Below the pieces are notes generated by a model. It did not search any database, was not told the origin of the DNA, and saw nothing but the letters and a program-made list of their open reading frames with translations. From a virus (taxonomy: Duplodnaviria; Heunggongvirae; Uroviricota; Caudoviricetes), in the IMG/VR virus record IMGVR_UViG_3300027782_003987, positions 1 through 27,068 of that record: a stretch of DNA of 27,068 bases, one strand, 5' to 3'. Positions 4,213 to 5,264 of this stretch are shown here, piece after piece; the stretch's first letter is position 1; every line of letters begins with the position of its first letter. A program made the position numbers and the translations under genes.

Positions 4213-5049
4213 ATGCTACCAAACAACCCACTCACCCAGTATTTCCGCCAACCAGCGATCTACATCCGACTGCCCAGCCAGGGTAAATTCTATCCTAATG
4301 GCTCATTAAACATGCCACCCAACGGTGAATTGCCTGTGCTGCCCATGACCTCAGTGGATGAGATCACATATCGAACACCGGATGCGCTGTTCAACGGATC
4401 TGCCACTGTTTCGGTTATCAAGAGCTGTGTTCCTAACATACGTGATCCTTGGGTAATGCCTAGTGCCGACATGGATGCTGTGTTAGTAGGCATCCGTATT
4501 GCCAGCTATGGACATGATATGGACATAAACGTCAAATGCCCTAGCTGTGAACATCTAGAAGATTTAACAGTGGATCTACGCAAAGTAAACGATTTACTAA
4601 CAGTAGGTGACTACAATACTCCTGTGATAATTGGAGATCTAGAATTTTATTTCCAACCCATGACCTTCCAAACTGTGAATCAAAACGGTCAGGTGCAGAT
4701 GGAACAACAGCAGATGATACGAACATACGAGCAGACTACTGACGAGACTGAACGCTCCGATCAAGTGGCCAAAATCATGGAAGCTATCAATCAAGCAACT
4801 ACAAAAACAGTAGCGGCCAGTATTGCTGCAATAAAGTCTCCAACAGCATTGGTAACAGAAAACGAATACATCACAGATTTCTTAAAAAACTGTGATAGTA
4901 AAATATTCAATCAATTGAAAAATCATGCAGTGGCACTGAAAGTTGCTAGTGAAGTCAAACCAGTGAGTATCATTTGTACTGAGTGCAAGCATGAATACAC
5001 ACAGCCGTTTACGTTAGATCTATCAAGTTTTTTCGACAACGCCTCCTGA
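4213..5049 (+). CDS. gp26: Baseplate hub/tail assembly chaperone, T4 gp26/gp51 family, with two CxxC pairs
   Basis: 278 aa with YFRQPAIYIRLPSQGKFYP, LPVLPMTSVDE, DAVLVGIRIASYG, CPSC, CTEC and a C-terminal LDLSSFF. SD GAGGA. Confidence 0.8.
   Translation: MLPNNPLTQYFRQPAIYIRLPSQGKFYPNGSLNMPPNGELPVLPMTSVDEITYRTPDALFNGSATVSVIKSCVPNIRDPWVMPSADMDAVLVGIRIASYGHDMDINVKCPSCEHLEDLTVDLRKVNDLLTVGDYNTPVIIGDLEFYFQPMTFQTVNQNGQVQMEQQQMIRTYEQTTDETERSDQVAKIMEAINQATTKTVAASIAAIKSPTALVTENEYITDFLKNCDSKIFNQLKNHAVALKVASEVKPVSIICTECKHEYTQPFTLDLSSFFDNAS
5028..5034 (+). other. Candidate programmed -1 frameshift heptamer T TTT TTC
   Basis: Zero-frame codons are agT TTT TTC gac aac gcc tcc TGA. The -1 frame is open from 5034 to the TAA at 5262-5264 and is the frame of ORF 5076..5264. 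Confidence 0.7.
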
Positions 5050-5075
5050 CTCTAGATCTCGACGAGATCAATGAC

Positions 5076-5264
5076 TTGGTTGACCGTATGGAGAAAGATT
5101 GCCAAACTATCCGTCAGGAGGCTATCAAGATAAGTTGGTTTATGCGAGGTGGATTAACTTACGATCAAGCCATGGCTCTGGGCATACAGGAACGCGAATT
5201 AGTCAATGAATTGATCAAAGACAACTTGGAAACAACCAAGAAAACAAACATGCCTTTCTTCTAA
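5076..5264 (+). CDS. Short gp51-like assembly protein, probably the C-terminal part of a frameshifted fusion (frame open from 5034)
   Basis: Contains ISWFMRGGLTYDQAMAL..ERELVNELIKDNLETTKK.NMPFF. The track start is TTG with no clear SD. Confidence 0.7.
   Translation: MVDRMEKDCQTIRQEAIKISWFMRGGLTYDQAMALGIQERELVNELIKDNLETTKKTNMPFF

Follow-up and report, generated by a model that had tools for sequence, protein, structure and literature searches.

The gene considered here is closest to three described systems: the T4 proteins gp26 and gp51, the frameshifted tail genes of lambda and P2, and E. coli dnaX. The tail assembly chaperone gene of phage lambda is reportedly read both as gpG and as the extended gpGT, through a -1 frameshift that is conserved in tail assembly chaperone genes. 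Phage P2 is likewise said to make its E and E+E' products through a frameshift at TTTTTTG. In E. coli dnaX, the tau and gamma proteins arise from a -1 shift at A_AAA_AAG, which is flanked by an upstream Shine-Dalgarno (SD)-like element and a downstream hairpin. The gene analyzed here belongs to the gp26/gp51 family and lies in a 27,068-nucleotide (nt) stretch of tailed-phage DNA (the window), positions 1 to 27,068 of the IMG/VR record IMGVR_UViG_3300027782_003987. T4 gp26 and gp51 are hub assembly chaperones (Leiman et al. 2010, Table 2, PMC3004832). T4 gp51 is essential, but its function is unknown and it is absent from virions (PMC3004832).

In the window, a single gp26-like gene carries a slippery heptamer shortly before its stop codon, and a programmed -1 frameshift at this site very probably (a probability of about 0.88) makes a short and a long form of the chaperone. 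The elements of the predicted system are as follows.

4213..5049, plus strand: gp26-like open reading frame (ORF), the 0-frame short product of 278 amino acids (aa), matching PF12322 and phrog_150
5028..5034, plus strand: slippery heptamer T_TTT_TTC in X_XXY_YYZ phase, the proposed -1 shift site, whose TTC is codon 274
5047..5049, plus strand: 0-frame stop TGA, four codons past the heptamer and within the -1 frame Leu codons of the R-L-L motif
5034..5264, plus strand: -1 frame extension of 76 codons (RQRLL...NMPFF) with its stop TAA at 5262-5264, a putative gp51-type C-terminal helical module
4213..5264, plus strand: predicted long product of 350 aa (274 from the 0 frame and 76 from the -1 frame), with the junction ...LDLSSFF followed by RQRLL

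Profile matches place the gene among the baseplate-hub assembly chaperones, in the family to which T4 gp26 and gp51 belong. The ORF at 4213-5049 matches Pfam PF12322 (T4_baseplate) with E = 3.3e-14 and 53.6 bits, against a gathering cut-off of 24.5, and matches phrog_150 with E = 4.5e-15 over profile positions 49-233 of 282. Two CxxC pairs, C109/C112 and C255/C258, one in each half of the domain, are invariant in the family alignment. The 3' end of the ORF reads agT TTT TTC gac aac gcc tcc TGA, and both tRNAs slipping at the heptamer would be tRNA-Phe. From 4995 onward the -1 frame is open, and it reads FF followed by RQRLLTLDLDEINDLVDRMEKDC...NMPFF. The predicted tryptic junction peptide of the fusion is HEYTQPFTLDLSSFFR. 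The first candidate starts in this frame are TTG 5076 and ATG 5088, and neither has GGAG or AGGA upstream. The original prediction had described this ORF, the heptamer, a -1 frame running to 5264 without a clear SD sequence of its own, and products of 278 and 350 aa; every coordinate was reproduced, and the downstream frame indeed has no such signal.

In the proposed mechanism, most ribosomes would pass the Phe-Phe codons and stop four codons later, yielding the 278-aa short form, the equivalent of T4 gp26. A minority would slip back by one base as the two tRNA-Phe on U_UUU_UUC re-pair on UUU UUU. The slipped ribosomes would then read 76 codons in the -1 frame to give the 350-aa long form, whose extra helical module would be the counterpart of the C-terminal tail of gp51 that gp26 does not have. 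In other words, one gene would set a fixed ratio of two forms for which T4 and some other lineages use two paralogous genes. The shift is presumably ribosomal and, by analogy with other tail chaperones, its efficiency is likely to be low, at a few per cent. Both forms plausibly act in hub or tape-measure assembly. In the part of the CBB virion proteome report that was covered, neither the gp26-like protein nor the downstream product is among the virion proteins, on an assumed mapping of gene numbers to RefSeq tags. No published report of a frameshift in the gp26/gp51 family was found in the full-text literature, whose coverage leaves out most subscription journals.

How does this locus compare with the described systems? 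Like lambda G/GT and P2, it would make a short and a C-terminally extended form with a shared N-terminus, and a -1 heptamer lies a few codons before the stop, although for this locus the likeness is one of sequence signals. As in lambda, the downstream frame is without a start or ribosome-binding site of its own, and the gene adjoins a putative tape measure gene. The heptamer is T-rich and almost the same as that of P2 E/E+E'. There are differences as well. The window gene and its putative tape measure neighbour are transcribed divergently, whereas the lambda gene is on the same strand and directly upstream; the window protein is twice as large as gpG and contains a Cys4 site. The likeness to dnaX is an X_XXY_YYZ shift that sets a fixed ratio of two forms with a shared N-terminus. 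However, the shifted product of dnaX is the shorter one and is made at a shift of ~50% by means of strong flanking stimulators, whereas the shifted product of the window gene would be the longer one and no stimulator is detectable in the window.

Evidence for the shift site comes first from its conservation. A set of 96 homologous loci with identities of 24-95% was assembled from GenBank phages (14 loci) and IMG/VR (82 loci). The aligned Phe-Phe is encoded as T_TTT_TT(C/T) in 94 of the 96 loci, and the sequence is TTTTTTC in 93 of those. Phages with the slip site include cultured phages of Agrobacterium, Pseudomonas, Serratia, Klebsiella, Escherichia, Pectobacterium, Vibrio, Salicola, and Xanthomonas. 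The distance from the heptamer to the 0-frame stop varies from 1 to 11 codons across loci but is 4 codons in 82 of 94, and the -1 ORF after the heptamer spans 70-79 codons, exactly 76 of them in 84 loci. The T run is exactly six bases long in 92 of the 94 loci; XacN1 and L098 (an IMG/VR locus) have T7. The run was crossed without an insertion or deletion by contigs of three DNA sequencing runs from three studies and by one RNA-library contig (Logan contigs were used for this check, and X18 covers 11 of 30 bins).

The codon choice around the Phe-Phe pair is equally constrained. The codon before the pair is NNT in all 94 loci although the residue it encodes varies (S, N, T, R, A, H, D, Y, L); the counts are AGT 50, AAT 28, ACT 4, CGT 3, GCT 3, CAT 2, GAT 2, TAT 1, and CTT 1. 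A preceding Ser is thus AGT in 50 of 50 cases, against a background of 32%, and a preceding Asn is AAT in 28 of 28, against a background of 49%. Elsewhere in the same ORFs, Phe is encoded by TTT in 66% of cases, Ser codons end in T in 46%, and other Phe-Phe pairs are written TTT TTC in 16 of 46. Given the amino acids and the codon usage of the ORFs themselves, the joint probability of the heptamers, taken over 25 lineages with less than 60% extension identity, is ~1e-25. The heptamer is therefore conserved far beyond chance.

Further evidence comes from the -1 frame, which behaves as a part of a longer protein and not as a separate gene. All 91 extensions that are not ended by a contig edge are open, and in no locus does a stop codon interrupt the stretch from the heptamer to the start that follows. 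Ahead of the heptamer, as far back as the previous stop, most loci offer no start codon in the -1 frame. The position of the first ATG past the slip site ranges from extension residue 2 to residue 37, and one locus lacks such an ATG. An SD-like tetramer stands before this ATG in just 4 of 90 loci, and a conserved independent ribosome-binding site was not found. At the protein level, conservation begins at the slip site itself: at least 80% of the 76-aa extensions keep R.RLL at residues 1-5. The original prediction proposed to check whether homologues keep slippery Phe-Phe codons and a -1 frame conserved upstream of its first start, free of intervening stops and of a start signal of its own, and the homologues bear this out on each count.

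A profile of the extension matched 435 protein clusters at E <= 1e-3 among 1.84 billion representatives. Among the best 150 of these 435 matches, most are gene-caller products of 39-102 aa whose N-termini are ragged, falling at profile positions 1, 5, 8, 19, 33, and 37; an arbitrary choice of start in a start-less frame would give such ragged ends. Natural fusions occur as well. About 18 of the best 150 matches are proteins of 319-351 aa in which the module sits in frame at the very C-terminus, and all 18 of these natural long proteins are PF12322 members. Their fusion junction, ...LDxSxxF-R-x-[KR]-[LI]-[IL]..., matches the junction predicted for the window except that it has a single Phe. One other protein, P0135 (2374 aa), scored E = 2e-11 against the extension profile with no single matched stretch and is probably a low-complexity or repeat artefact. 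A search of PHROGs with the 76-aa extension by itself gave no match. Public annotation lists the extension as a separate hypothetical protein of 40-68 aa, with differing starts, in Atu_ph07, BF, SCTP-2, Vibrio 2.275.O, XacN1, 121Q, and CBB; it is unannotated in RaK2 and Cassandra, and none of the GenBank records checked has a joined coding sequence (CDS).

The strongest argument comes from the way in which the two forms are distributed over genomes. Exactly one PF12322 gene is present in each of eight slip-site genomes that are complete or at least 95% complete (Atu_ph07, Cassandra, BF, RaK2, 121Q, and three IMG/VR genomes), whereas the T4 genome, taken as a control, has two. The genomic context of a natural fusion was fetched for two loci (L019 and L021), and in both a separate short PF12322 paralog lies directly upstream. 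The short paralog of L019 is a 297-aa protein that ends in GADFFQKK; the upstream gene of L021, which is interrupted by the contig end, ends in ...NPADFLSKGD. In T4 gp26 and in the short paralog of L019, the Phe-Phe pair is written TTC TTT, which is non-slippery. Lineages thus have either one slip-site gene or two genes, a pattern that argues for a need for both forms and for the slip site as the source of the second.

The two T4 proteins offer a guide to what the two forms would be. The PF12322 match covers ~200 residues in each of T4 gp26 (208 aa) and gp51 (249 aa), and gp51 has ~48 residues more. Their extents on phrog_150, and those of two natural long forms, are as follows.

T4 gp26: phrog_150 positions 14-235 (of 282)
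T4 gp51: phrog_150 positions 13-280 (of 282)
Natural long form P0043: phrog_150 positions 56-270 (of 282)
Natural long form P0119: phrog_150 positions 49-270 (of 282)

The window short form, like gp26, stops near phrog_150 position 235 and ends just past the FF motif, the end of gp26 being ...KEFFELL. The extensions resemble the tail of gp51: ...DVF-KLLVNPDEI... in gp51 compares with FF-RxRLLxxxPEEI...[ST]Y...ER..., and the shared pattern is F-[RK]-x-LL-x-x-P-[ED]-E-[IV] ... [ST]-Y ... E-R. Cys pairs are a further likeness, with C82/C84 and C187/C190 in gp26 and CPKC and CC in gp51. T4 differs in having two divergently transcribed paralogous genes without a frameshift where the window has a single slip-site gene, and the extension is 76 aa in the window compared to ~48 aa in gp51.

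Identity to T4 gp26 and gp51 is too low for detection by BLASTP, and the correspondence was therefore sought by profile alignment. In a global hhalign comparison, 14 predicted fusions aligned with six T4-like gp51 proteins at a probability of 86.7 and E = 4.9e-7, and the two profiles stayed collinear all the way from the first CxxC to the C-terminus; with the reversed control, E was 0.099. The 18 natural long forms aligned weakly with the six gp51 proteins, at a probability of 13.9 and E = 0.00045, over query columns 1-241, which fall short of the extension. The end-to-end match to gp51 is therefore a result for the predicted fusions only. An hhalign comparison of the natural long forms with single T4 sequences was discarded as it was mis-registered on the internal CxxC repeat. 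A tblastn search with the gp51 tail reached Straboviridae only. Taken with the family membership, the alignments indicate that a short, gp26-type form and a long, gp51-type form would be encoded in one genome through the predicted frameshift.

Is the likeness to lambda G/GT also one of descent? A natural long form was modelled with AlphaFold (m388787edf3d8; predicted local distance difference test score 87.9, predicted template modelling score 0.84), and the model has an alpha/beta body with a four-helix extension. A Foldseek search of the Protein Data Bank with this model found no solved structure at E <= 0.001, and a profile search of its sequences found nothing relevant. The Swiss-Prot AlphaFold library, which excludes viral proteins, gave no meaningful match. 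In a viral structure library, all matches of the model were gp26/gp51-like myovirus proteins. Sequence or fold similarity to lambda G/GT was thus not seen. The original prediction had suggested that the family acts as G/GT equivalents; this holds for the expression logic of two forms with a shared N-terminus but not for homology. The comparison with G/GT is accordingly supported as an analogy of mechanism, and not as family membership.

Two RNA elements downstream of the heptamer were considered as possible stimulators of the shift.

5041..5047, plus strand: GCCUCCU, 6 nt past the heptamer, the 5' arm of a long-range stem in many relatives
5055..5069, plus strand: 6-bp hairpin GAUCUC-GAC-GAGAUC, 20 nt past the heptamer, lineage-specific

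The hairpin is present as the original prediction had described it, but it is not a conserved stimulator. It occurs in the 95% identical locus L005 and is missing in L022 (74%), and the 70 nt past the window heptamer fold at -12.9 kcal/mol with z = -0.12, i.e., no better than shuffles. The hairpin is probably not a stimulator. The second element is more widely distributed. Many relatives have a pairing partner for GCCUCCU(G), namely (C)AGGAGGC, ~50 nt downstream. In an alignment of 82 sequences, 70% of the cells of this long-range stem are paired, compared to 35-53% in slid controls, and 13 sequences show C:G to U:A covariation. A helix of at least 7 bp starting 4-10 nt past the heptamer was found in 34 of 82 distinct relatives, with a mean z of -1.52 for the downstream 70 nt. 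The stem bases also encode the conserved residues R-L-L (5' arm) and K-E-A. Because the 5' arm encodes R-L-L, coding constraint confounds the signal of an RNA stem. GCCUCCU is identical to the anti-SD core of 16S rRNA, and its partner AGGAGGC is SD-like. In the window and its nearest relatives, GAUUGC replaces the 3' arm of the stem.

Several points weigh against a programmed frameshift in the window or against parts of the proposed scheme. Long-range pairing in the window is limited to 4 bp, CUCC (5043-5046) with GGAG (5090-5093), and RNAalifold found no consensus structure in the 82 aligned downstream regions. A canonical stimulator would be either an RNA structure that lies 5-9 nt downstream of the heptamer or an SD-like element ahead of it; the window has neither, with no GGAG or AGGA within 28 nt upstream of its heptamer. 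The window heptamer thus probably acts alone and at low efficiency, which would suit a minor long form. The long form itself is a predicted product, and the shift is read from signals in the DNA. The record from which the window is taken spans 91 kb of an uncultured virus and is estimated to be 26% complete, and a second PF12322 gene may be present in the window's phage. By itself, the extension shows weak similarity to the gp51 tail (E = 0.016 in local hhalign; ~2 bits with a hidden Markov model), but the local hhalign match falls on the correct 28 C-terminal residues of gp51. As this similarity is weak when taken alone, the case for homology is built mainly on collinearity, and homology of the extension to the gp51 tail is probable but not proven.

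A last point against the scheme is that in two distant lineages (L010/L011 and L016) an extension-like domain lies in the +1 frame, and the extension module may sometimes be made separately, as the L016 domain has its own ATG. At L010:2230-2450, and equally in L011, the sequence GAC TTT TTT TGG with a T7 run is associated with a gp51-tail-like domain in the +1 frame that has no start before mid-domain. At L016 (LR756508):2225-2420, the corresponding sequence is AAC TTT CTA TTC, and the ATG of the +1 domain lies 34 nt ahead of the stop of the upstream gene. The cause in these lineages could be a +1 shift, a small gene that is translated separately, or a homopolymer error. The two lineages point to evolutionary plasticity of the arrangement.

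Three other explanations of the locus were weighed. Slippage by RNA polymerase is the best of them, but it is improbable. According to this explanation, the polymerase adds one U on the T6 run, and some mRNAs then encode the fusion in frame. The homopolymer run is the feature that the loci share, XacN1 and L098 even have T7, and a ribosomal shift would yield almost the same protein. Polymerase slippage is efficient only at about 8-9 bases. Selection for slippage would favour longer runs, whereas the run is held at six in nearly all loci, and it always stands in the X_XXY_YYZ phase. The RNA-library contig that crosses the run also has T6, although this is a weak point because a contig drops rare variants and the library may contain DNA.

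Slightly less probable still is that the locus consists of two ordinary genes, with the downstream ORF translated alone from TTG 5076 or ATG 5088 into a protein of 58-62 aa and the T run a by-product of a Phe-Phe pair and AT-rich codon usage. The separate small hypothetical protein annotated in the phages listed above and the ATG of the distant L016 ORF are in keeping with this explanation, as is the conservation of the FF motif at the protein level in T4 gp26 too. However, the position of the start is not conserved and an SD-like motif before it is rare, while R.RLL and the conserved residues that follow it lie upstream of every candidate start. AT-rich codon usage does not account for the heptamer either, as the third base before the pair and the choice of TTT TTC are fixed beyond codon bias (~1e-25). 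Furthermore, the pair is TTC TTT where a separate long gene exists, and natural in-frame fusions exist. In the third explanation, a fused gp51-like gene was disrupted, either in assembly or by a recent frameshift mutation, and is a pseudogene. This explanation appeals to the error-prone sequencing of homopolymer runs but is refuted by the comparative data, as the same T6 and frame relation recur in 94 independent records, finished genomes of cultured phages included, and T6 is also found in the contigs of the three separate studies.

The gene resides in an uncultured RaK2/Atu_ph07-like jumbo myophage. Pfam and PHROG matches across the window point to a T4-related jumbo myophage, and the genes of note are listed here.

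189-1988, minus strand: portal gp20
2005..4149, minus strand: 714-aa ORF, putative tail tape measure or hub protein, divergent from 4213-5049
5662-6090, minus strand: SegE-like GIY-YIG homing endonuclease (PF19835, 5e-33), between the gp26-like gene and a radical-SAM/gp46 block
Elsewhere in the window: gp46/gp47-like nuclease subunits
Elsewhere in the window: gp55-like late sigma factor
Elsewhere in the window: gp5-, gp25-, and gp6-like baseplate genes

Among cultured phages, the closest relatives of the focal protein are found in Atu_ph07, PA5oct/Cassandra, RaK2, 121Q, GAP32, BF, CBB, SCTP-2, and XacN1, at 24-31% identity. A DNA-level search of GenBank phages with the locus returned zero matches, and contigs near-identical to the window were found in freshwater metagenomes from several studies. 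The 714-aa ORF may encode a tape measure or hub protein. It is syntenic with ORF088 of RaK2, which its depositors labelled as similar to tape measure protein, and its look-alikes in a protein language model include TMP_3 and PhageMin_Tail clusters (0.92-0.93), a weak lead. Pfam and PHROG searches with this ORF gave no match.

Other observations concern the surroundings of the gene. The top PHROG of the SegE-like endonuclease bears the label 'NAD synthetase', and its spot is variable, being taken by an endonuclease VII gene in RaK2, BF, 121Q, and CBB. In the intergenic stretch 5324-5400, within a 397-nt gap, the summed contig depth rises from ~8-22 to 98-590 in three DNA runs from three studies, which indicates that a short sequence there is common to many other contigs; no repeat copy of it is present inside the window. 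A 69-nt unit is tandemly duplicated at 12208-12345, inside the gene of a 656-aa virion protein (11920-13890); the two copies are 74% identical and encode 23 codons each.

A broader model can be put forward tentatively, and it is a good deal more doubtful than the frameshift. It supposes that gp26 and gp51 are the long-missing tape-measure/hub chaperones of T4-like contractile tails and act in a G/GT-like manner, in which the common domain would hold the tape measure protein and the extension would dock it to hub or tube-initiator proteins. The single-gene arrangement with a slip site, as in RaK2-, Atu_ph07-, and PA5oct-like phages, would be the older one, and T4 genes 26 and 51 would have arisen from it by duplication and loss of the slip site. 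If this is true, an unrelated fold has convergently come to use the same short/long expression logic.

What would a programmed frameshift in this family mean? It would recast gp26 and gp51 as one two-form system, the short and long versions of a single chaperone, both of which many giant phages appear to produce from a single slip-site gene. It would also give a testable hypothesis in which the ratio of short to long form is fixed and the extension serves as a docking module. Annotation of a joined CDS would correct public records that split the gene. Lastly, a non-homologous protein family would be added to the known cases of -1 frameshifting in the tail assembly of tailed phages.

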